A stretch of 46,041 nt of DNA from a virus. Location: the UHGV virus genome UHGV-1457062. One strand, written 5' to 3'. The notes beneath the pieces are model-generated. The model saw only the letters and a list, made by a program, of their open reading frames with translations. It ran no database searches and was not told where the DNA came from. Below, in pieces: positions 10,306 to 20,936 of the stretch (position 1 is its first letter; each line of letters opens with the position of its first letter). A program made the translations under genes and the position numbers.

Positions 10306-10962
10306 TTATTTCACTTCTCCGTCATACGTCGGAAGGGTGTCTTTAGTGGTGCTGGCTGTTCCTGCATTGGTTGGCACTTGGCTTTTTACCTGTCCGCCTG
10401 TGCTCTTAGGTGATGCGGTCTTTACAGCAATAGCGTTAGTAGTTGCATAACTCACTAATCTTATCTGTTCGAACTGCAAATCAAACTGTAAAGCTGATTC
10501 TGTTTTATATTCGTAGTCAATGCCTGTCAGAATCATATTATCAAACGTCTTATGCTCTGTGCTTACAATAATAGGCTGTCTGGCATTCATTATTTCATCA
10601 AGATAAGCAATAGCCTGTGAACACCTGTTACCGTTCACCCCTGCACTTGATAGCATATCACCACGTAATGCTAATGGTGTTTCTGTAATAATGCCTGAAA
10701 GCATAAGTTTATTATTCTTGATCCTGACATTATCAGATACATCATTACCATCCTGCACAGGATACGATGTAACATCGGCAGAACGTGAAACCTTAGTTGC
10801 CGGAACAGCGTCAAAAGTAATAGCTTTATAACTGGCTATCGTTGATGCATTCTCGTTATTCAGGTTGCTACATATAATGGCAAATCCGTTATCAGATTTA
10901 ACCTTGCTGTTAGATGTATTAATGTTAGATGTGCTGTTGATCTGACTTTCTTTGATAGCCAT
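10306..10962 (-). CDS. hypothetical protein (218 aa), Ser/Thr/Asn-rich
   Basis: Long ORF last in a co-directional block; no recognised motif. Confidence 0.55.
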   Translation of the reverse strand: MAIKESQINSTSNINTSNSKVKSDNGFAIICSNLNNENASTIASYKAITFDAVPATKVSRSADVTSYPVQDGNDVSDNVRIKNNKLMLSGIITETPLALRGDMLSSAGVNGNRCSQAIAYLDEIMNARQPIIVSTEHKTFDNMILTGIDYEYKTESALQFDLQFEQIRLVSYATTNAIAVKTASPKSTGGQVKSQVPTNAGTASTTKDTLPTYDGEVK

Positions 10963-11035
10963 TTATATTAATCCTTGTGTAATGAGCGGAAAGCAATAAA
11001 TATTGCCCCCGCTTTATTATTAGTTATCGTTAAAC

Positions 11036-12937
11036 TTAGTTAACGCTACTCTGTCCTGACAACGTGCTAAGAATCAGATTCGAACTAAACTGATTGTTGT
11101 TCGCTCTGATCTCAGTGCGGATTAAATCCTGAAAGCCGGGACCGTTAGGGATGACGTTAACAGAGATCATATCACTCGGCACCGTAACCTGTGCATTCAC
11201 GTTAACAGGGGTTGCGTATTGACGTTGTAGGCTTACAGTCGGCTGATAGGCTTCTGCTTTACGTGCAACAAGGGTTGATCCGTAGCTGTTAGCATTGCCA
11301 TTAATTAAATCAGTCCACCACCCTGGAACGCCGGACTGTGTTTCCTCACCGCGCACAATACGCCCTACATCTTTCGTATCGAGTCCAGTTGCATAACGAA
11401 TACCTTCATTGATAATCGTTGATGGCGACCATTCCCCATCTGTAACAGCGTCCATAACCTTTTGTGTCTCAGGTCGGTTATCATTCTCACCACGGCTAAG
11501 ATGTTTATTAATCCAGCTTGTGATTTGATTCCCGTAAGAAGTCATAGAGGTCAGTAATATAGCGCCTTGTTTAGCCAAATCCCCGAACGATGCACCAACA
11601 CCATAAGCTGCATTCTGTAAGGCTTTGCTTTCTTCCGGTTTGAGTGCTGGCATGTTGGCTATGCCATCAAAGAAGCCCAAAATAGCCTGATTCGATAGTC
11701 CATCTGTCAGACGGTCAAAGGCTGTAGCTGTCTTGTTAGCTGCGCGATATTGCTCTTTCTGTGCTTCTGTCAGTAGCTGCCCGTTGTTTTCCATATCAAC
11801 CATCGTTTTACGGAACTCTTCCCCATCACGGGAAAACATCTTGAGATAATGGCTGGCATCGTCTGCTAATGGTTCGATCAGGGATATGATGGCTTCTTTA
11901 GTCATTCCTCGGCGTTCACCTTCTCTCACCACGTCTTGCAAGAGTTGCAGCGGTCGCCCCTGGTAGGAAGCTATCTTATCTTTGTTCCATGCAAAGGCAT
12001 TCTGAATATCATTTAATGATCCTTCCCCGCCTCGCCACTCTTTTTTCTTACTATCCCATTCAGCAGTTCGGCTTTGATGACCAATGCGTTCGTTTAAGTC
12101 TTTGATATTATCAGTGGTCTTGTCCGCGCTTGCACTTGATACACCGTTTGCCCTCCCCCAATTAACCATTGCAGCCACCTGATTGCTATCGGCACCTACC
12201 AGATCGCTCATCTTCTGCAATTCCATACGTTCACGGGCTTTTTCCATTCCAGCGGATACAGCCATACTTCCTAAGCCAACGGCAGCGCCGCCGATAATGC
12301 CACCAACACCGCCCATCATTAACGCGCCACCGCCGCTAACACCTTCTTTGTGGAGCTTCTTAGAAGTAACTGGATATACCCCCCCAGCGGCAGCATTACG
12401 ACGCGTAGCAGCGGCTGCGGCTCGTCTTTCTAATGTGATGCGGTCACGGATCAGGGCATTCATCTTCGCTTGCGATATAGCGCCGGATTCATAGAGGCGG
12501 GTTTGTTCCTTAATGTAACGTAGAGCATCGTGATATTTCTTAATATCCATCCCTTCGCCATAGCGGGAATTGTTCTTGATGCCTTGTAACTGGCGATATG
12601 ATGCAAGGCGCTTGATCTCTGCCTTTTCAGCAATTGAGGCTCGTTTAGCCTGTGCTTTAGCGAGGTTTTTAGCTTCCTGTAGCTTCTGTTTAGTGCTGGC
12701 TTTAGATGCCTGTGTCTCAGATTTAACAGCCTGCTTAACATGCTGATCATGCTGGCGCTGAATCTCTTTTCCCAGCCTCTGTAAATCTTTCTGACGTGCT
12801 GCCGCCACTTGCACAGGTTTGATCCCCTGCATCTTCTTTTGTAGCTTATCCACTTCATTCTTAGCTTTCTGTAAGCTCTTGAAATCAGTGGTAAATGTCA
12901 CAACATTACTAATTCGTGAGGCGCTAATTTCTAACAT
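11036..12937 (-). CDS. hypothetical 633-aa protein: basic coiled-coil N-terminus, Gly-zipper hydrophobic segment, large C-terminal domain (tape-measure/pilot-like architecture)
   Basis: Heptad-like K/Q/A-rich N-terminus, GGALMMGGVGGIIGGAAVGLGSMAVSAG segment, no P-loop or catalytic motif recognised. Confidence 0.7.
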   Translation of the reverse strand: MLEISASRISNVVTFTTDFKSLQKAKNEVDKLQKKMQGIKPVQVAAARQKDLQRLGKEIQRQHDQHVKQAVKSETQASKASTKQKLQEAKNLAKAQAKRASIAEKAEIKRLASYRQLQGIKNNSRYGEGMDIKKYHDALRYIKEQTRLYESGAISQAKMNALIRDRITLERRAAAAATRRNAAAGGVYPVTSKKLHKEGVSGGGALMMGGVGGIIGGAAVGLGSMAVSAGMEKARERMELQKMSDLVGADSNQVAAMVNWGRANGVSSASADKTTDNIKDLNERIGHQSRTAEWDSKKKEWRGGEGSLNDIQNAFAWNKDKIASYQGRPLQLLQDVVREGERRGMTKEAIISLIEPLADDASHYLKMFSRDGEEFRKTMVDMENNGQLLTEAQKEQYRAANKTATAFDRLTDGLSNQAILGFFDGIANMPALKPEESKALQNAAYGVGASFGDLAKQGAILLTSMTSYGNQITSWINKHLSRGENDNRPETQKVMDAVTDGEWSPSTIINEGIRYATGLDTKDVGRIVRGEETQSGVPGWWTDLINGNANSYGSTLVARKAEAYQPTVSLQRQYATPVNVNAQVTVPSDMISVNVIPNGPGFQDLIRTEIRANNNQFSSNLILSTLSGQSSVN

Positions 12938-12971
12938 GCTAATTGTTTCCCTGTATTATGATTGTTGTTTG

Positions 12972-13169
12972 TTATTGTTTTTTAGAACAGTAGTATGTAA
13001 TTGCTTCAAAAGTGCTGCACCCAGTCTGAAACACACGCTGCCGCACATTATTTGCATCAATTGAAAGCATTCTGCATAAGGCACTGACATTGATTATTGA
13101 GTCATCGCTAATAGCTGCCAGTTCTTTTACAGACTTAAGAATTAATGCCTGTGAATTTTCTGTGTTCAT
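12972..13169 (-). CDS. hypothetical small protein (65 aa)
   Basis: Short ORF in the gap between the 343-aa and 633-aa genes, same strand. Confidence 0.3.
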   Translation of the reverse strand: MNTENSQALILKSVKELAAISDDSIINVSALCRMLSIDANNVRQRVFQTGCSTFEAITYYCSKKQ

Positions 13170-13322
13170 TGGTTTTCTCTCACATATATATTTTTATTTG
13201 GGTTTGTAGACAGTAGAAAAACAAAAAAGGCAAAGAGATTCGTTACTGTATTTGCGCCTACAGGTTAGGTAATCCCTTTACCCTTATTTTCCAGACGATG
13301 GGAATCGTCTATTAATGCTTTA

Positions 13323-14354
13323 TTACGCAGCAGATCCGAAGATGATAGCTTGCGGAATGTTGTTTACTGGCAGATAAGATGTCTCAGTAACCACAGATGG
13401 GAATTGGAATTCATCCTTGATTAGATATTGGTGATGCAACACGGCATCTTGACCTAACTCAGCATGACGCACACCAACGCCTGTGTGAAGCTGGTAACAC
13501 TGTACCGATTTATCCATTACCGGGACAATTGCGAAACCGTTCTCTCCGATGTGAGCAACAATCTCAGGAAACATTGACACATCAATAACAGTGATCCCAC
13601 CAATCTGGAAAGAGTCATAGGCTGGGTTAGAATCAACCATACGGGTAAACAGGGCCGTAGCACTCGCATCACCTGCATATTTCACCATGTCACTGATCAG
13701 CGGGTTAGATGACAAACCATCAGCAGCAGCGCCAGCAGCAAAGATAATTACACCAGTTCGCTTTGCAGCAAGACCAGACCCCAGCTTTTCACTCTGTAAG
13801 CGCACCGCTTTACGAATAGCAAGGAACGGGTTAACAGTAGTCGATGCAAAGTCGATAGCGGGTACCGTGGTTTTAGCCTGACCGTCGAGGAAGTCGAGAT
13901 CACCTTGTCCGGCATATTCAGATTCAACTTTCAGTCCCAGCAGCGCGGTAATCAGATCCACTTCAACACGGTTTGCGTGTGAACGGTAATGAGCCTCAGA
14001 GAAATCATTAACCGCTACCAGCATAGCATCAGAACGGTTTGGATATTGGCGGCTGTATTGTTCCAGGTCACGAGAAGTAACAGCGTTAATACTGCCGACG
14101 TGTTTCATCTGGAAAAGTTTGTTTGACCATTCCTGACGTTTAGAGGCGTTCCAGTCGCTTTGAGCGTAAGGCGAGGTTTCCCCAGCTACCTGCACAAACT
14201 GATCGATCAGGTCGGTAAGAAGAATGCTGTTTTCTGTATGATATTGCACATCGAACAGATCGAGATTAGTAATCAGGGTATTAAGTGCATTCTCATAAGC
14301 AAAAGGAGTTACTACCGCAGTATTAACGCCAAAATATGTTGATAAATCATTCAT
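13323..14354 (-). CDS. hypothetical protein (343 aa)
   Basis: Long ORF in co-directional block; no nucleotide-binding motif; function unknown (structural role is only a guess). Confidence 0.65.
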   Translation of the reverse strand: MNDLSTYFGVNTAVVTPFAYENALNTLITNLDLFDVQYHTENSILLTDLIDQFVQVAGETSPYAQSDWNASKRQEWSNKLFQMKHVGSINAVTSRDLEQYSRQYPNRSDAMLVAVNDFSEAHYRSHANRVEVDLITALLGLKVESEYAGQGDLDFLDGQAKTTVPAIDFASTTVNPFLAIRKAVRLQSEKLGSGLAAKRTGVIIFAAGAAADGLSSNPLISDMVKYAGDASATALFTRMVDSNPAYDSFQIGGITVIDVSMFPEIVAHIGENGFAIVPVMDKSVQCYQLHTGVGVRHAELGQDAVLHHQYLIKDEFQFPSVVTETSYLPVNNIPQAIIFGSAA

Positions 14355-14368
14355 TATTATTTTCCTTG

Positions 14369-14752
14369 TTAAGTCGTAGGGATCGCAAGTTCTTCATAAC
14401 CAGCAATTACAAAGCCGAGAGATTGCAGTTTTGCAATAACACTTGCCTTTTCCATGCTGTTAAATTCAATCCCATCTTCAGCCAGAATAACGAAAGTAGG
14501 ATGTGCAACCACTACGCTTTCCTGTCCTTCATAAGCCGGTTCAACTACTACGTGAGCAATATCAGATGCAGTTGTTGCTTTGGTGCCATCGGCTTTCAGC
14601 AAAGCCCCGACAATAAGATCGTCAGTGAGAGGTGAAGCCAGTTTGACGAGGCGATCTTGCAGCACTGGATCAGCAGCGTAAGCTACTACCTTACAGCGTG
14701 AACGGGAATTATCCGCATTCACTGCTTTTAATTTTCCATATGGGTTAGCCAT
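14369..14752 (-). CDS. hypothetical protein (127 aa)
   Basis: ORF 15 bp upstream of the 343-aa gene, same strand. Confidence 0.55.
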   Translation of the reverse strand: MANPYGKLKAVNADNSRSRCKVVAYAADPVLQDRLVKLASPLTDDLIVGALLKADGTKATTASDIAHVVVEPAYEGQESVVVAHPTFVILAEDGIEFNSMEKASVIAKLQSLGFVIAGYEELAIPTT

Positions 14753-14756
14753 AAGA

Positions 14757-14954
14757 TTATTTTCCTTTCAGTTGTTTAATTTTAGATTTAAGGGCATCAG
14801 CAAGACTAACCGCATCAGCCGATTTAAATAATTGGGCAGTGGTAGAACGAAGACTTTCGGGAGTAACTCCCAACAGTGCGGCAACCTTAATGAGGTTTTC
14901 ATCACTAACAATCATCGTTTCCCCGTCTTTGCTGATAATCATTTCTTGTTTCAT
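14757..14954 (-). CDS. hypothetical small protein (65 aa), basic C-terminus
   Basis: ORF track 14757-14996; internal ATG at 14954 (MKQEMIISKDG...) has an AGGAA RBS. Confidence 0.45.
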   Translation of the reverse strand: MKQEMIISKDGETMIVSDENLIKVAALLGVTPESLRSTTAQLFKSADAVSLADALKSKIKQLKGK

Positions 14955-15135
14955 AAATAACGTTCCTGTTAGTGCCAGACAAATAAAAAGCCCCAATGCC
15001 GTAAGAGGTTAATTCTGACCAGCAAAGGGGCTTTAACGTGCGGGCAATTACATAATTGATAAGTTAAACTATAAGAGGATTAAACATATCAGCAAATACA
15101 CTTTTTAAATATACTTGATGATATGCTTAAAGGAT

Positions 15136-15200
15136 GAATATCAGATCTTAGAAGGAAGGCTCTTAGGAGTTGCCCCTGGAATCACTAAGATCTGATATTC
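15136..15200. repeat. perfect 16-bp inverted repeat (gaatatcagatcttag / ctaagatctgatattc) with 33-bp spacer
   Basis: Read directly from sequence inside a ~950-bp ORF-free gap (15000-15948). Confidence 0.8.
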
Positions 15201-15948
15201 TGGATGCGGTGGCTAACCGCTGCCTGTTTTTGCTGTGGATGCAACAAAGTAAGGCTTTAAGGAATCACTATTCCAATTCTCATCTACTCACAGATTAAAT
15301 TTTAATAGGATTAACTACACCAACAATAATCTACCGTTTCAGAAAAAGCGTTTTTACAACCAAAGATTATAGATTTGCAGTCTATAAAACCCGTTTTGCT
15401 ATCAATATTTCCAAAGGTTATTGCACAATTCTTAGCTAAACTCTCTCTGCTTGCGGCTAACGCTATGCAGATGATTGTTTTTGACAACAACTTAATAGAT
15501 TATTCTGTTACTAACTTCCGTCATTAAATAAGAGTTTAATGATGTTAGTAAATAGTTATAAAATATAACTATCAGTGTAAGGCTCTTTAATGTTTTCGGA
15601 CAAAATAAGGAGCTTTAGGATAAGCATAGATGAAAAATAAAAGCGGGAAGGGCAAGGAGATAACACCTACCCGCTTTTATCAAAATTAAGCACAATGCCT
15701 AACAACATTCATCAACACAACGTAGAAACAATCAACAATCAAAGAGGGAGTTATGATTATTCTAAAACTTCTTGAGGGGATGGAAGGTAATATTTGTTAG
15801 AGGTTAATGCCACTCAACCTTTGAGGCTATCACCTTCCATATGCAGGGATTTATGACAGTAGAAGGATTAACACCAGTCAAAACCTTTTTATCTATCCCT
15901 AATATTATTATATAATGAAATCGTTATAAATGCAAATAATTTTCATTA

Positions 15949-16257
15949 TCATTTAGAGAAAATAGCACTTTTTGCTAAATCATCTACTAATTGCTGAATC
16001 TCTTCACTTGCAGCCTTTAACGTGCTGGCGGTGTCTGTGATGGTTTGAGTGCACATCTTGGCATCGTCCTCAATTAGCTCTAAATCGCTCACCAGAGAGA
16101 TAAAATCGTCAAGGCTTACATTCACCTTCATTAAGCTAATAACGCATTGAGAGAGCGTGTAATCGCATAAATCTGAATAGGCTTGATTTATTCTTGTTTG
16201 TAGTGAGATAGTCAGATCTAAAAGTTGTTCCATTGCATTGCTAATATCTTCTTCCAT
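15949..16257 (-). CDS. hypothetical acidic protein (102 aa), translationally coupled to rep
   Basis: Start ATG overlaps rep stop (TAATG); about 22% Asp+Glu. Confidence 0.55.
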   Translation of the reverse strand: MEEDISNAMEQLLDLTISLQTRINQAYSDLCDYTLSQCVISLMKVNVSLDDFISLVSDLELIEDDAKMCTQTITDTASTLKAASEEIQQLVDDLAKSAIFSK

Positions 16258-16817
16258 TATGCGGCTTCTCCTTGTAATGCATCATTAATCATATTCAATA
16301 CGATGTTAAAAGGTGTCTTGAGCGTCAGCACTTCATCACGATAACGCTCTAATGCTTCGTAGTCTTCTGTTTCTTCGTGCGGTGGTTTCTTCTTATCAAG
16401 GGAAAGAAGCCAAGTAAAAATTTCGGGCCGCTCAGGGAACTCTGATTCCTGTATTTCTTCTTCAACGATGATTTCTGAAACATTCAATATTTCATTAGAT
16501 TCGTTTTCTTTCTCAGAAGGATCAGGTAGTGATGATTCTCCTTTTGGAATATCAAGCACTCGATAAAGGTTAGAGCTTCCTGGTCGTGCATCTTTTATAA
16601 TTAATCCCATTTCGAGCAATTTCTTAACCCTTTCTTCTGCTGCTCTTGGTGTTATGCCAAAAACATCGCCTATCTTAGCGTAAGAGGGAAATGCACGATC
16701 AAACCCTCTCAAATAGCAGTAAAGGTTTTTAGCACTATCTGTAAATTTATGCCCGTTTACTTGGCTTATTTTTAGAATCCACATAGGAACTTTTACAAAT
16801 TGTTCTTCATTAATCAT
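16257..16817 (-). CDS. putative replication initiator (winged-helix Rep-like)
   Basis: ORF track 16257-16841 (GTG); ATG at 16817 with AAGGAGA RBS; HTH-like region ...KIGDVFGITPRAAEERVKKLLEMGLI...; iterons nearby. Confidence 0.5.
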   Translation of the reverse strand: MINEEQFVKVPMWILKISQVNGHKFTDSAKNLYCYLRGFDRAFPSYAKIGDVFGITPRAAEERVKKLLEMGLIIKDARPGSSNLYRVLDIPKGESSLPDPSEKENESNEILNVSEIIVEEEIQESEFPERPEIFTWLLSLDKKKPPHEETEDYEALERYRDEVLTLKTPFNIVLNMINDALQGEAA

Positions 16818-16870
16818 TAAAAATCTCCTTGATGTAATCACGCTCTACGGCGCTACTATGGTGATAAAAA

Positions 16871-17041
16871 TCACTTGCTTTTGTTTGAGAGTGTTTCAGC
16901 CTCTCTTTTCAACATATCAAGAATGTAATCTGTAACAGTGATACGTTTACTTCTGGCTTCTTTAAACAACACCTGAAATACTTCATCAGGAATATGAAAG
17001 CAAGTGCGTGGTTGTCTTTTCTTTTCTGTAGTTTCGCTCAT
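16871..17041 (-). CDS. ribbon-helix-helix (Arc/CopG-like) small regulator, 56 aa
   Basis: Manually translated MSETTEKKRQPRTCFHIPDEVFQVLFKEARSKRITVTDYILDMLKREAETLSNKSK; strong AGAAGGAG RBS; below the ORF-track size cut-off. Confidence 0.45.
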   Translation of the reverse strand: MSETTEKKRQPRTCFHIPDEVFQVLFKEARSKRITVTDYILDMLKREAETLSNKSK

Positions 17042-17062
17042 AGTTTTCTCCTTCTCCTGTTA

Positions 17063-17245
17063 TTATTCTTTCTCTGCTTCTGCCTTACGCAGTTCATCAA
17101 TAATTTTTAGTGCGTCGTCAAAGCATTTTTCACGCTCTGGGTAGCCACGGCGACGGGCTGTATTACGATTCTGGCGAACCTGGTAGCGGGTCATCTCACC
17201 AGCGAGATACGCAGAAACAATGTCATTTGGTGTAAACCATTTCAT
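17063..17245 (-). CDS. hypothetical small basic protein (60 aa)
   Basis: ORF at head of the RHH-rep operon. Confidence 0.4.
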   Translation of the reverse strand: MKWFTPNDIVSAYLAGEMTRYQVRQNRNTARRRGYPEREKCFDDALKIIDELRKAEAEKE

Positions 17246-17859
17246 TTTTGTAATTCCTTATTCAAATAAAAGAAAAACACACCTTGCAGCCTGACGGCTC
17301 AAAGTGCAGTGTATTGTGATTTGATTATTTAGATGGGGGAGATGCTTTTCTTACCCCTCACATTTACTTTACTACATATGGAGGCTTTTGTCAACCCCCT
17401 TTCATAAAAAATACGATCTTTTTCAATTTCTTATAATTTTTCTTATCTTTTTGTGCTATCTTATCTGGTACAATTCTCCACTATTGTCTAAAACGCTCTC
17501 AATCGCATTCTGACGAGGTTTTGATAAAAACAAGACATTCCCTTATGTAGAGGCTATTTATCTCGTCAGAGGCTTGTTTAAGGGGCTTATTTTGTATTTG
17601 TTAGATGATGGAAAGATGATGATAGATAAACTCTGATTTCAAACACCTTATAAAATACCTGCAAAGCTCTCAGAAGCTCTATAACGAGCTAATCTATTAC
17701 CGCTAAGTGTTTCCCTACCTTATATACGTTTAGCTCGCCTACGGCTTGATTTAAGCGGTAGAAACTTATTTAACCTTCAACTACTAAAACCATTCTTTCT
17801 TTTTTGTTTGTTGTTGGTTGTTGTCTGTGTGCTAACATCGCTAACGCGTAGCACACAAG

Positions 17860-18240
17860 GTTATTGCACTCGTCAGAGTATTGCACAATAGATTTTCTCT
17901 TAAATAGATTGATGATCGTTAGATTGGCGTAAGCCTCATCAATGGAACTATTGAAGCGCACAGCGCATAGACACTAACAACCATTCGCTTACGCTCAGGT
18001 TATTGCACAAGTAAATTTCAATCGTTAGATGGTAGTTAGTTAATTATCGTTCTGCGCACAGCGCAAGACTATTTAGCCTTACGCAAGCCGTAGGCTATTT
18101 GCACATAGTAGATTACATATTCGTTGTGAGCGGCATTAGCGAACATAGATCTACTAACTAACATCAACAAACAAAAAACTATGTGTTATGACAAGCAGTC
18201 TAACGACTAACACTCTAACTTGTGCAAGGTTCTGGCGAAT
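17860..18240. repeat. degenerate direct repeats (recurring TTATTGCACA, ATCGTTAGAT, GCGCACAGCGCA, CTTACGC motifs)
   Basis: Motif sets recur 2-3 times in the same order within the ORF-poor region 17250-19000. Confidence 0.5.
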
Positions 18241-18359
18241 GCCAATAGATTAAGGGATAGTCGAAGACTCCCTAACGGGTATCCCTTAATTATTCTTTAA
18301 AGATAAAAGAATTTATAAAAGATAATTTAATTGTAGTTTGATAGTTGATCTAATAGGTA

Positions 18360-18500
18360 ACAAAATTCTGTAGGGGTGGCTAACAGTTTTCTGTGGGGGT
18401 GTCTAACATAATTCTGTTAGGGTTGGGGTAACAGTTTTCTGTTAGGGTGCATATTTCTTTAAAAGTTAAGGATAACAGAATTCTGTGGGGGTAGTTCACA
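18360..18500. promoter_or_regulatory. iteron array (5 x ~22-bp TTCTGTnGGGGT-type repeats), candidate replication origin
   Basis: aattctgtaggggtggctaac / agttttctgtgggggtgtctaac / aattctgttagggttggggtaac / agttttctgttagggtg / aattctgtgggggtagttcac in tandem. Confidence 0.6.
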
Positions 18501-19010
18501 GTGACCTACCGTTACATCCATTTATCACATAACATCTGTGCAATGATCTTCTAAAAGTGTTTCTTGCTACCAAAATTAAACATCTAAAACAGGCTTAAAT
18601 TCAATGTAATTGATGATTAATCCCTGTGTAATTCCTACGTAAAAATTCAATGAAAAGTAGCTTAAAAGTGCAATGTTAGCTTTCTTCACTTTTACATCAC
18701 TTTCGCTGTGCCTTGTGTAATGCGGCATATAGCGCATCACTGCAAAATTGTTGCTCAATAAACGTTCTATCATTTGTCGAACAAGTTTCTTTAATGCAAC
18801 AAAAAATTATTTTTTCAAAATAAACACACTATTTAATAGCTTGCTAATTTTACCAAAACGTAACTACATGATTCTCATGCAAGACGTGTAGTGATAAAGC
18901 AGGCTAAATCACCACACTAAAAACCTTCGAATTTCGTAGTGAAAAAAGTCCTTTACACACCTAATCAACACGATCAATAATCACTACACACAAATCAACA
19001 CAGAAGGAAA

Positions 19011-19568
19011 ATGAAAATGGCTAATATTGGATACATTAGGGTATCGACTGTCCAACAAAACACAGACCGTCAATTAGCTGGAGTAACTCTTGATAAAGTC
19101 TTTGAAGATAAAGCGTCAGGCAAGAATACCCAGCGCCCACAGTTTGAGGCAATGATGAACTATGTGCGTGAAGGTGATGTTTTGCATGTTCACAGCATTG
19201 ATCGACTTTGCCGTAATACAGCCGACCTACTGGCAACGGTTGAGCAATTAACAGAGCGCGGCGTGTCTGTGCATTTCCATAAAGAAGACTTTAAGACAGG
19301 GAAGAACTCTCCCGCAGGGAATATGATGCTCACAGTGCTTGCAGCAGTGGCACAAATGGAACGTGAAATGATGCTTGAGCGGCAGCGTGAGGGGATCGCC
19401 GCAGCTAAGGCCGCTGGACGTATAGCAAAACGTGGTAATGGAAAAGCAATTGATCGAGCGGGAATTGTTGCCGCTCTCGCGAATGGTGGATCAATTCGGA
19501 GCGTAGCAAAAGATTTCAGTGTCAGCACACAGACGGTGCAACGTATCAAGAAAGAGCAGGAAGCGTAA
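19011..19568 (+). CDS. serine recombinase (resolvase/invertase family)
   Basis: N-terminal IGYIRVSTVQQNTDRQ catalytic motif, C-terminal HTH; about 185 aa; alternative start at 19017. Confidence 0.85.
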   Translation: MKMANIGYIRVSTVQQNTDRQLAGVTLDKVFEDKASGKNTQRPQFEAMMNYVREGDVLHVHSIDRLCRNTADLLATVEQLTERGVSVHFHKEDFKTGKNSPAGNMMLTVLAAVAQMEREMMLERQREGIAAAKAAGRIAKRGNGKAIDRAGIVAALANGGSIRSVAKDFSVSTQTVQRIKKEQEA

Positions 19569-19908
19569 TGCCTCCTGATATTTGAGAATTGTCGCTGCGT
19601 GGACCTGACGCCGCTGATCTTCGCGTTAAACATTGATCACGTCTGCGCCGATTTCAGAGAAAAAGACAGTAACTGAACTCACTATGAAGGCTAAACGTAT
19701 CTTTACACTTGATGAAAACGTTCAAAAAACAACCTAACCCCAAAATTCAACAAATTGCAACACATTGTTTTTAAAAGAAAATTAAATCTACATCAAATAT
19801 TGGTTGACGTAGATTGAGGTGAATAGTAGACTATTAGGGTAAATTACCACCCTTGTAACATCATTTAATGCATGTTCTAATCTTCCTATCGTAAAACCGG
19901 AGGAAGTT

Positions 19909-20067
19909 ATGCATTTACTTTCAAAACATCTTCACACTATTCACTTTCTCGTTATTGATGTATTCGTTGTGGCTATTAGTTACCGCATTTGCATCGCTTC
20001 CAGTGAAGAGATGGACGCTGTTGCAATTATTGCTCAAGCAATGGCGATGTTAACTAAACGACTTTAA
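19909..20067 (+). CDS. hypothetical 52-aa hydrophobic peptide
   Basis: Manually found ORF with GGAGGAAG RBS and upstream TTGACG/TAGACT promoter-like hexamers; single predicted TM helix. Confidence 0.25.
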   Translation: MHLLSKHLHTIHFLVIDVFVVAISYRICIASSEEMDAVAIIAQAMAMLTKRL

Positions 20068-20888
20068 TAATTTCACTATCAGGTGCATAAACACATCTTT
20101 GATCGCTGGATGTGTTATGCGCCTACTGGTGATTCAATCCTTAAGCCATTTCAACTCACTAAGGAGTTTTCTTTCTTCGTTCTCTCGCTGTTTACGCTCT
20201 AGCCAGGCTTTTCCTTCTGGCGTAGACAGGAACTTACGAGCGTGAATCTTGCGGTTATTACGTTTGATAGCTGCAATGTTTTTCATCGTGTGCCTCTGTA
20301 TTCATATGAAAATTAACAAGTTACATACTACACAGGAAGGCTACGCATAAAACACAATACAAGTAAAGATACATTTTCAAGACAATAGGAGCCATAAAGC
20401 GCCTTTGATGGTTATACCAAAAAATAAGCGCCGTAGGCGTATCCACTAAAAAGGGCTTTTTCACAAAAGCTATGAAGTCTTAGCAGTTCTTCTCTTATCA
20501 GGCACCCGTTGTACTCCGGTGGACGAAACCGTGCTAGAGCTTGATTCTTTCCCGATCAAGTTAGGTTTTGAAGAGGTGGGCTTTAATCCACTATGCACTT
20601 AAAACTCTTCCCATCATTTAGCCTGTTTATCCTCTGCAACGTCTCACGACGTGTAGCATCATTGGACACCGCGCCAGGTGTGGAACATCTTGCTAAGAGT
20701 TTTGGTAGAAGGTTTAGAGACGGTGGCACGTCTTCCAGCTTCAAAGGAACTTGTTACGAGGTTGAGCCTGTGAACTACTCGCCCATACGTGTTACACTAC
20801 CAAAGCCCATAACAACGTATAGGCGTTTGTAAGTGATAACAGAAGATACAATTTCTTAGAGAAGTTAAGCTAAGTTATTGATTTTCTT

Positions 20889-20936
20889 AATGGTGCCGAT
20901 AATAGGAGTCGAACCTACGACCTTCGCATTACGAAT
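20889..20936 (-). repeat. 46-48-nt copy of thrW tRNA-Thr(CGU) 3' portion (anticodon loop to CCA); P22-type att core, not a complete tRNA
   Basis: Reverse complement reads ATTCGTAATGCGAAGGTCGTAGGTTCGACTCCTATTATCGGCACCA; 5' half of the tRNA absent (sequence diverges at 20937). Confidence 0.7.

Follow-up and report, generated by a model that had tools for sequence, protein, structure and literature searches.

Several described phage and satellite systems come close to the locus reported here. Foremost is the lambdoid late region (Q, PR', 6S RNA, tR'), where a near-consensus promoter directly follows the upstream gene and is succeeded by several hundred bases free of open reading frames (ORFs), two intrinsic terminators and the first late gene, all on one strand. 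Another is the P4 PLE leader with its CI RNA, and the related c4 of P1 and P7; in P4, premature termination in the leader is controlled by an RNA made from that same leader. The put RNA of phage HK022 is about 70 nt long, lies near the promoter and consists of two short stem-loops; it acts in cis and makes RNA polymerase resistant to terminators. Finally, untranslated phage transcripts carry RNase III hairpins (the T7 early R sites, lambda sib), helices of about two turns with an internal loop.

The window, i.e. the whole 46,041-nt stretch of DNA that was analysed (UHGV virus genome UHGV-1457062), holds an example of the lambdoid arrangement. It is found in a tandem P22-like prophage (20937-46041), where Q occupies 44172-44690 (PF06530). 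Here, between 43575 and 44194, a PR' promoter (TTGACA-18-CATAAT, 11/12 consensus positions) is followed by an ORF-free leader of about 590 nt with two terminator hairpins, and then by the holin gene. The rest of the window (1-20936) is the E. coli thrW island, and the subject of this report is a 994-bp stretch of it without a credible ORF (14955-15948).

This stretch resembles the lambdoid late region in all the points of layout just listed, with two predicted intrinsic terminators before the first structural gene. It differs in that the element that carries it has no recognisable Q (PF06530/PF03589), in that the upstream gene encodes a 102-aa acidic protein, in the length of the putative leader (about 925 nt vs about 590), and in its long hairpins with allelic stems; the two show no sequence similarity. 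With P4, P1 and P7 it shares a setting in a small integrative satellite-like element, promoters followed by terminators, and inverted complementary segments in the leader. By analogy with P4, RNA-based control may operate in this element as well. However, no match to the Rfam C4 family (RF01695) was found in the window or in six related loci, there is one complementary pair here rather than a regulator with two targets, and the leader precedes the structural operon, not the replication operon. The likeness to put lies in a structured leader RNA that precedes terminators, in a phage-like element where no antiterminator protein can be recognised, but a put-type RNA would make read-through constitutive unless initiation were repressed.

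The gap and its host element

The gap sits in an integrative phage-like sub-element of about 12 kb, bounded by a tyrosine integrase gene and a tRNA-Thr attachment site. The genes and neighbouring stretches are as follows.

8867-10231, plus strand: tyrosine integrase (RefSeq annotation)
10306-10962, minus strand: Dit-like protein (PF21821)
11036-12937, minus strand: tape-measure-like protein, 633 aa
13323-14354, minus strand: capsid protein (PF03864, the lambda gpE family, matched by 8 of 12 homologues)
14369-14752, minus strand: 127-aa protein (ORF list and RefSeq)
14757-14954, minus strand: 65-aa protein, first gene of the structural operon (RefSeq CDS)
15949-16257, minus strand: 102-aa acidic protein, no Pfam match
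16257-16841, minus strand: O-like winged-helix replication protein
16871-17245, minus strand: two small proteins, p56 and p60
17246-19010: second ORF-free stretch, 1.77 kb
19011-19568, plus strand: Hin-like invertase

The sequence-only reading had described a long ORF-free gap between two operons. The absence of coding content holds up well. From 14954, where the 65-aa gene begins, to 15949, where the 102-aa gene stops, ORFs reach 59 aa at most, the RefSeq genome identical to window positions 1-20936 has no annotation there, and six-frame pieces of the gap (at least 39 aa) have no match in Pfam or PHROG. A coding relic was considered and ruled out, as there is no Pfam or PHROG match and indels among variants are not multiples of three. 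The gap does lie between operons, the replication or early operon on one side and the capsid and tail-like operon on the other, but both of these are on the minus strand, and it is thus an inter-operon leader and not a divergent control region. Known RNA families offer no identity for it: Rfam is empty for the gap at the gathering threshold in a window-wide search and empty up to E = 10 in 14700-16300, and on the six related loci only tRNAs and a TPP riboswitch were matched. A comparison of the gap with 50,697 phage records gave no similarity in the near or the distant (sensitive) mode.

Is the element a remnant or a going concern? Similar DNA is present in 282 of 5,426 complete E. coli genomes (strain GW-AmxH19, NZ_CP048647, is one carrier), and gene order is identical in Citrobacter, Kluyvera, Buttiauxella, Phytobacter, Scandinavium, Kosakonia and Raoultella. 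Its spread and the order kept across genera suggest a satellite-like mobile element that still functions, not a prophage in decay. The family carries its own lambda-gpE-like capsid, tape-measure-like and Dit-like genes, and no terminase or portal was found among the element's proteins. Nor was a homologue of an antiterminator (Q, N or other) found in its ten proteins with Pfam, PHROG and PADLOC; the same Pfam library does detect Q in the neighbouring prophage. About one-fifth of the element's 12 kb is non-coding. The widespread island lies next to the vat toxin gene.

In public records the element's proteins are unannotated or misannotated (‘transporter’, ‘ACP S-malonyltransferase’), and the searchable literature, by topic and by sequence string, gave no description of the element or its leader RNA. 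The capsid protein showed no similarity to phage records, and PDB sequence searches with it and with the 127-aa protein returned nothing. For the 65-aa protein, an AlphaFold model (pLDDT 70.6) predicts a beta-hairpin and three helices; Foldseek of this model against the PDB gave no match at E <= 0.001.

Predicted promoter, leader and terminators

On the minus strand, reading from the 102-aa gene towards the structural genes, the gap can be parsed into the following features. The promoter and terminators are assigned from motif matches.

15907-15936, minus strand: putative sigma-70 promoter TTTGCA-18-TATAAT, 10/12 consensus match, 13 bp past the stop of the 102-aa gene
14975-15900, minus strand: putative leader transcript of about 925 nt, ORF-free, as delimited by the promoter and terminators
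15780-15840, minus strand: HP1, promoter-proximal hairpin with a 13-bp outer stem and an inner stem, then a C/U-rich tract
15627-15680, minus strand: T3, candidate internal intrinsic terminator, 12-bp stem then UUUUAUUUUU, about 270 nt from the predicted start
15206-15220, minus strand: HP-a, small hairpin GCGGU-loop-ACCGC, just 5' of HP-b on the RNA
15136-15200, minus strand: HP-b, the palindrome hairpin, with a 16-bp lower stem, internal loop UGAUUCC, an upper stem and apical UCCUAAGAGC
15080-15130, minus strand: HP-c, 23-bp imperfect hairpin between HP-b and T1
14975-15034, minus strand: T1, candidate final intrinsic terminator, AAAGCCCC...GGGGCUUU then UUUUUAUUUGU
14952-14967, minus strand: Shine-Dalgarno AGGAA (14963-14967) and ATG (14952-14954) of the 65-aa gene

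The promoter is the sole minus-strand promoter-like site that a motif scan found within the gap. Its hexamers are identical in 10 E. coli variants, and transcription of the leader would start near 15900. Of the two further stem-loops that had been noticed from the letters, at about 15783-15840 and about 15640-15680, both are present. The first is HP1 (arms 15780-15792 and 15828-15840, 92% complementary; -24.8 kcal/mol, z = -4.69), whose one non-Watson-Crick pair is a G·U on the minus strand; in other genera an analogous hairpin is followed by CCUCUUCUCUAAAAUC. The second belongs to T3 (arms 15637-15651 and 15666-15680, 93% complementary), in which the stem AAAAGCGGG...CCCGCUUUU is followed by AUUUUU (-21.6 kcal/mol, z = -4.9). 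T3 is terminator-like on both strands, and its U-run is interrupted by one change in most other E. coli variants.

Between the end of the T1 stem (-23 kcal/mol, z = -3.4) and the ATG of the 65-aa gene there are 33 nt, and the U-run of T1 reaches almost to the Shine-Dalgarno sequence. In the second type of capsid module a compensatory change (AAUGCCCCC/GGGGGCAUU) keeps the T1 stem paired. A strict terminator scan lists neither T1 nor T3 because their loops exceed 8 nt; both consist of a G+C-containing hairpin directly before a U-run on the transcribed strand, which defines an intrinsic terminator. The motif scan found no promoter-like site between T1 and the ATG of the 65-aa gene, and expression of the structural operon must therefore pass T1. 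The early operon shows the same design in the window, with a promoter at 17394-17366, a terminator hairpin with U-run and the first gene at 17245, and matching promoter-terminator-gene designs occur at the early operons of two related loci (L004 and L012). Sister variants have a 127-aa basic protein among the products of their early genes. Both operons of the element are predicted to stand behind promoter-plus-terminator cassettes.

Variation among E. coli copies sets the promoter-proximal part of the gap apart. Among 31 distinct E. coli variants, mean pairwise identity is 92-96% in bins covering 15260-15859, 79-83% in 14960-15259 and 69-90% in the flanking genes, so that 15260-15859 is the best-conserved part of the locus although the flanking modules swap among variants. 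The same gap is flanked by either of two capsid-module types, < 35% identical in protein, and by several types of replication module. The alleles of HP-c and T1 go with the p66/capsid module type that follows downstream.

The layout extends beyond E. coli. Six other enterobacterial genera have an equivalent ORF-free gap of 460-710 nt in the same place, and five of these six loci were scanned for promoters and terminators. In Citrobacter, Kluyvera, Phytobacter and Raoultella, four of the five, an 11/12 promoter has the same position and orientation; an intrinsic terminator lies directly ahead of the first structural gene in four of five as well. A promoter (TTGCAT-17-TAAAGT, in L007) and a terminator (in L008) that the scan missed were read by eye. 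Similarity at the DNA level, as judged from E. coli against Citrobacter, is confined to the promoter region, where the spacer is conserved too. The predicted transcript start reads A(A/U)GGG(U/A) in all members of the family, and TAGGGT-like hexamers are present. Q-dependent lambdoid late leaders combine a Q-binding element with a -10-like element in the initial transcribed region, where polymerase pauses in a sigma-70-dependent manner. For the first 160 nt of the leader, the alignment across genera was too poor to show a shared fold.

The palindrome and its neighbouring hairpins

A perfect 16-bp inverted repeat with a 33-bp spacer had drawn attention to the gap in the first place, and it is confirmed. 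Its arms, 15136-15151 (GAATATCAGATCTTAG) and 15185-15200 (CTAAGATCTGATATTC), are 16 nt long, 100% complementary and 33 nt apart. In 300 first-order Markov simulations of the gap (spacer 3-60), the longest perfect inverted repeat had a mean of 8.3 +/- 1.1 nt and a maximum of 12. On the minus strand the repeat forms the lower stem of HP-b (-36.2 kcal/mol, z = -5.1), and HP-c, on its 3' side, has a fold of -21.1 kcal/mol (z = -7.6).

Does the sequence matter, or the pairing? Complete genomes, IMG/VR and metagenomes yielded 39 full-length E. coli copies, 29 of them distinct, and three alleles of the HP-b stem.

Allele A: 5' arm GAAUAUCAGAUCUUAG, 3' arm CUAAGAUCUGAUAUUC
Allele B: 5' arm GAAUAGAUAUUCCUGA, 3' arm UCAGGA(A/G)UAUCU(A/G)UUC
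Allele C: 5' arm GAAUAGCAGGAUCGUAG, 3' arm CUGCGGUCCUGUUAUUC

Although 8 of the 16 arm positions vary among them, every allele is fully paired, with 14-16 Watson-Crick pairs and the rest G·U. Three parts do not vary, namely GAAUA/UAUUC at the foot of the stem, (U)GAUUCC in the internal loop and UCCUAAGAGC at the apex. The sequence-only reading had named folding and covariation across homologues as a check. An alignment guided by a covariance model was fitted to the structure for 13 distinct variants, which represent only three independent alleles plus a few point variants; in it, both partners have changed in 11 of the 16 palindrome pairs, and every cell of the palindrome is paired (100%). Over the whole hairpin module 97.7% of cells are paired, vs 31-49% with slid partners, and 15 pairs are changed on both sides, a number reached by none of 500 shuffles. 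HP-c contributes 4 pairs changed on both sides, with its wobbles G·U on the minus strand. HP-a has 96.9% of cells paired and a loop that varies; as its stem is invariant, it is uninformative for covariation.

The wobbles also tell the strands apart. At each of the seven palindrome positions that are not Watson-Crick, the minus-strand RNA has a G·U pair where the plus strand would have A·C, and HP-a, HP-b and HP-c together show 12 distinct G·U pair types vs one A·C on the minus strand. Since pairing is kept despite unrelated stems, and since all wobbles are G·U on one strand, the palindrome is very probably an RNA hairpin of the minus-strand leader and not a DNA site, as far as comparison of alleles can tell. 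A template-switch ‘palindrome correction’ at the DNA level could also keep the arms matched, and part of the G·U asymmetry could come from a mutation bias coupled to transcription, a bias that would itself imply minus-strand transcription. The proposal of a structured small RNA thus stands in part. A structured RNA is supported, but the hairpin would be situated inside a long minus-strand leader rather than in a free-standing small RNA gene. A search with a covariance model of the three-hairpin module (R1) found it in E. coli-type elements only.

What could HP-b do? Its allele is unlinked to those of rep, p56, p60, the invertase, the tape-measure or the Dit gene. This argues against a reader of the stem sequence encoded by the element and favours a role of structure only, or a partner encoded elsewhere. 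Because the stem is free to change in sequence and tracks no protein allele, our best guess is a structure-only element, e.g. an RNase III processing or stability site. Like the RNase III hairpins of phages, HP-b has a helix of about two turns with an internal loop in an untranslated phage transcript, and its pairing is conserved while its sequence is not; the modelled helix geometry would suit RNase III, which cleaves double-stranded RNA stacked coaxially over about 20 bp or more. Unlike those sites, it has the conserved apical UCCUAAGAGC and internal-loop (U)GAUUCC. These loop motifs offer a hint of a specific ligand.

Possible roles of the leader and their meaning

Taken with its promoter and terminators, the gap is probably a transcribed, structured leader of the capsid operon under termination/antitermination control. 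The sigma-70 promoter at 15936-15907 on the minus strand, strong and probably constitutive, would give rise to an untranslated structured RNA of about 925 nt. The predicted terminators T3, at about +270, and T1, directly before the ribosome-binding site, would stop most transcripts, and the capsid operon would be turned on only once RNA polymerase had become terminator-resistant or the terminators were bypassed. HP-b would lie in the 3' third of this leader, with the palindrome as its lower stem and HP-a and HP-c flanking it. Candidates for the antiterminator are a Q/N-like factor of a helper phage, a protein of the element or the RNA itself. The model supposes that the promoter fires, that the terminators work and that read-through is regulated.

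The leader might in addition supply RNAs that act in trans. An RNA of about 270 nt from the promoter to T3, or processed leader RNAs, would then confer immunity in the manner of P4 CI or P1 c4, or interfere with a helper, and the HP-b alleles would be specificity types. Such a role would extend the leader model, with which it does not conflict. A discrete RNA would be expected from a strong promoter with a good terminator after it, the promoter-to-T3 stretch is highly conserved, terminators are present at both operons as in P4, and divergence is 50% in the HP-b stem vs roughly 15-20% in its flanks, as expected from selection for new specificity. Targets, however, are hard to find. There is no third copy of either arm within 3 mismatches, no complementarity of at least 12 nt between the gap and the rest of the element, and pairing with the early leader is, in the best duplex, not above that of shuffles (17/200). 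There is no match to Rfam C4 or another family, and the HP-b allele is unlinked to alleles of the early region. We regard trans-acting RNAs as unlikely.

Packaging is a different matter, as an element with no terminase or portal of its own requires some packaging signal. The gap, or 15260-15860 within it, could be a pac or cos site for a helper terminase, placed at the head of the structural module as lambda cos is. Its position directly upstream of the structural genes would suit this, and the strong conservation of 15260-15860 among mosaic variants would also fit pac or cos. Yet neither the lambda-type nor the P2-type cohesive end, which we take to be GGGCGGCGACCT and GGCGAGGCGGGGAAAGCAC, is present in the gap. 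The sole P2-like cos match (14/19, at 12018-12036) falls within the tape-measure-like ORF, where a single allele has it, and is therefore probably due to chance. The gap resembles none of the phage records, and a packaging site would leave the promoter, the terminators and the strand-specific RNA covariation unexplained. The packaging role once proposed for the gap is thereby weakened, and we consider it quite unlikely, with the conserved promoter-proximal part left as a candidate.

Still less likely is an antisense RNA of about 100 nt from the plus strand, which would pair with the leader. An extended -10, TGATATGCT (15119-15127), would set its start near 15134, and its end would be the following site.

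15206-15232, plus strand: T2, terminator-like, the HP-a stem then a T-run, 3' of the palindrome on this strand; allele-specific

The plus strand of the HP-b region folds well (-39.2 kcal/mol, z = -3.4), and T2 gives the window's allele a terminator-like site after the hairpin. But the T-run is replaced by TATCTTTCATGG in allele B and in L015, so that T2 is not a conserved feature, and all 7 stem wobbles would be A·C mismatches in a plus-strand RNA. The scan found no plus-strand promoter upstream of the hairpin, and the -10 candidate, read by eye, is altered in the L002-type allele.

The recombinase or regulator site suggested from the letters did not survive the allele comparison. A double-stranded DNA site for a dimeric protein, such as the Hin-like invertase or a ribbon-helix-helix protein, would account for the perfect symmetry in the window's allele, and the invertase gene and those of small DNA-binding proteins are nearby. 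Half of the arm positions differ between alleles with pairing kept, however, the imperfections are strand-polar G·U pairs, the alleles are unlinked to those of invertase, rep, p56 and p60, and there is no second copy to serve as a recombination partner. Such a site is very improbable. A replication origin in the gap is almost certainly to be dismissed, since, although the gap is downstream of a Rep/O-like gene as in PICI-type satellites, five 23-bp iterons beside an AT-rich stretch lie in a different gap (18358-18502), no repeat family of at least 3 copies and > 13 nt was found in 14900-16000, and variants that differ in Rep type share the conserved gap.

What, then, does the termination/antitermination leader add to known systems? 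Relative to the lambdoid late region, the new features here are most likely the lack of a recognisable antiterminator gene, the longer leader and a stem that diversifies while its loops stay fixed. A more far-reaching proposal, possible but with the balance against it, is that a new class of regulatory RNA, acting in cis or in trans, lets an undescribed satellite family couple expression of its capsid gene to a helper phage. In that case specificity for immunity or helper recognition would reside in the HP-b alleles, and UCCUAAGAGC with GAUUCC would be where an antiterminator or RNA polymerase docks.

The locus offers a structured RNA with good covariation support that matches no listed phage cis-regulatory RNA, and it does so in an element that is common, both in E. 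coli (282 of the 5,426 complete genomes) and in at least six other enterobacterial genera. Should the leader prove to be only of the lambdoid late style, it would be ordinary, yet it would improve the annotation of a widespread island. It would be of more interest if the HP-b alleles were specificity determinants, or if the RNA itself conferred terminator resistance. If the leader is a termination/antitermination switch, it would make the way in which a mini-element senses its helper readily accessible to experiment.

Repeated leader motifs and the early-operon control region

The leader, an ORF-free gap before the capsid operon, would give a minus-strand RNA in which two motifs are doubled. 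A putative control region also precedes the early operon, the replication-side genes upstream of the leader.

15158-15168 and 15247-15270, minus-strand RNA: UAGUGAUUCC and UCCU(A/U)AAGCCUU, two occurrences each
17245-17394, minus strand: early-operon upstream region

The loop of the big hairpin, HP-b, carries one copy; a small hairpin (GGAAUAGUGAUUCC) about 95 nt upstream of it carries the second. The doubled motif could represent a repeated ligand site. In the early-operon region, a promoter close to consensus (TTGACA-17-TAAAGT) is accompanied by a 5' hairpin and, about 30 nt ahead of the first gene, by a predicted terminator made up of a hairpin and a U-run; the same layout is present in Citrobacter and Raoultella relatives (loci L004, 4644-4771, and L012, 4936-5122), so that both operons of the element lie behind terminators.

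Replication origin and variable genes

The element's second, larger ORF-free stretch (17246-19010) contains iterons.

18290-18502: AT-rich stretch adjoined by five direct repeats, each about 23 bp long (TAACAGnnTTCTGTGGGGGT)

The repeats, with a spacing of 23/23/25/44, and the AT-rich stretch form a typical iteron replication origin. A 127-128-aa protein whose N-terminus is very basic (MGRKKKNNLKRIEK...) is encoded by most family members, and its gene lies two genes upstream of the promoter of the leader (e.g. L016, 3057-3440; L004, 6930-7316); this gene is absent from the window's variant and from the related locus L002. The 194-aa Rep-like ORF of the window has a C-terminus homologous to a separate 67-aa gene in sister elements.

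Tandem insertions at thrW

A P22-like lambdoid prophage is inserted in tandem with the element at the same tRNA-Thr site, and provides an example of a lambdoid late leader in the same window.

3084-7864: vat (vacuolating autotransporter toxin gene) and a MarR-type neighbour, just upstream of the element
20937-46041: P22-like prophage (tailspike, ejection proteins, needle, portal, terminase)
44172-44690: prophage Q gene
44194..44165: prophage PR' promoter
about 44114-44152 and 43697-43735: prophage terminator hairpins
43575: start of the prophage holin gene

Integrase remnants separate the vat/MarR-type pair from the element, an arrangement that points to islands arrayed in tandem at thrW. ARAGORN detects no intact tRNA in the window, because the divergence of its sequence from the reference begins within the tRNA-Thr gene. 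Outside the island, beside yagU, is a full-length match to the Rfam IS009 RNA (197 bits; 154-354, minus strand).

The element and its relatives

about 8300-20936: integrase-to-tRNA-Thr element, about 12 kb

Several names in public records look like propagated annotation errors: 'ACP S-malonyltransferase' for homologues of the 65-aa protein (14757-14954), and 'transporter' and 'ABC transporter ATPase' for those of the 102-aa protein (15949-16257) and its neighbour. GGCGAGGCGGGGAAGGATC (12018-12036, minus strand) matches the P2/P4 cohesive end over its first 14 nt, with 0 matches expected from shuffles. This stretch is, however, part of the tape-measure-like ORF, where it codes for WRGGEGS, and it occurs only in loci carrying that allele of the gene; the match is probably a coincidence.

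What, then, is the element as a whole? Its genes include those for a capsid protein of the lambda gpE family, a tape-measure-like protein and a Dit-like protein, but its approximately 12 kb contain no terminase or portal gene. Of 5,426 complete E. coli genomes, 282 carry it; it also occurs in several other enterobacterial genera, and its family is highly mosaic. The element looks like a member of a phage-satellite family undescribed so far.
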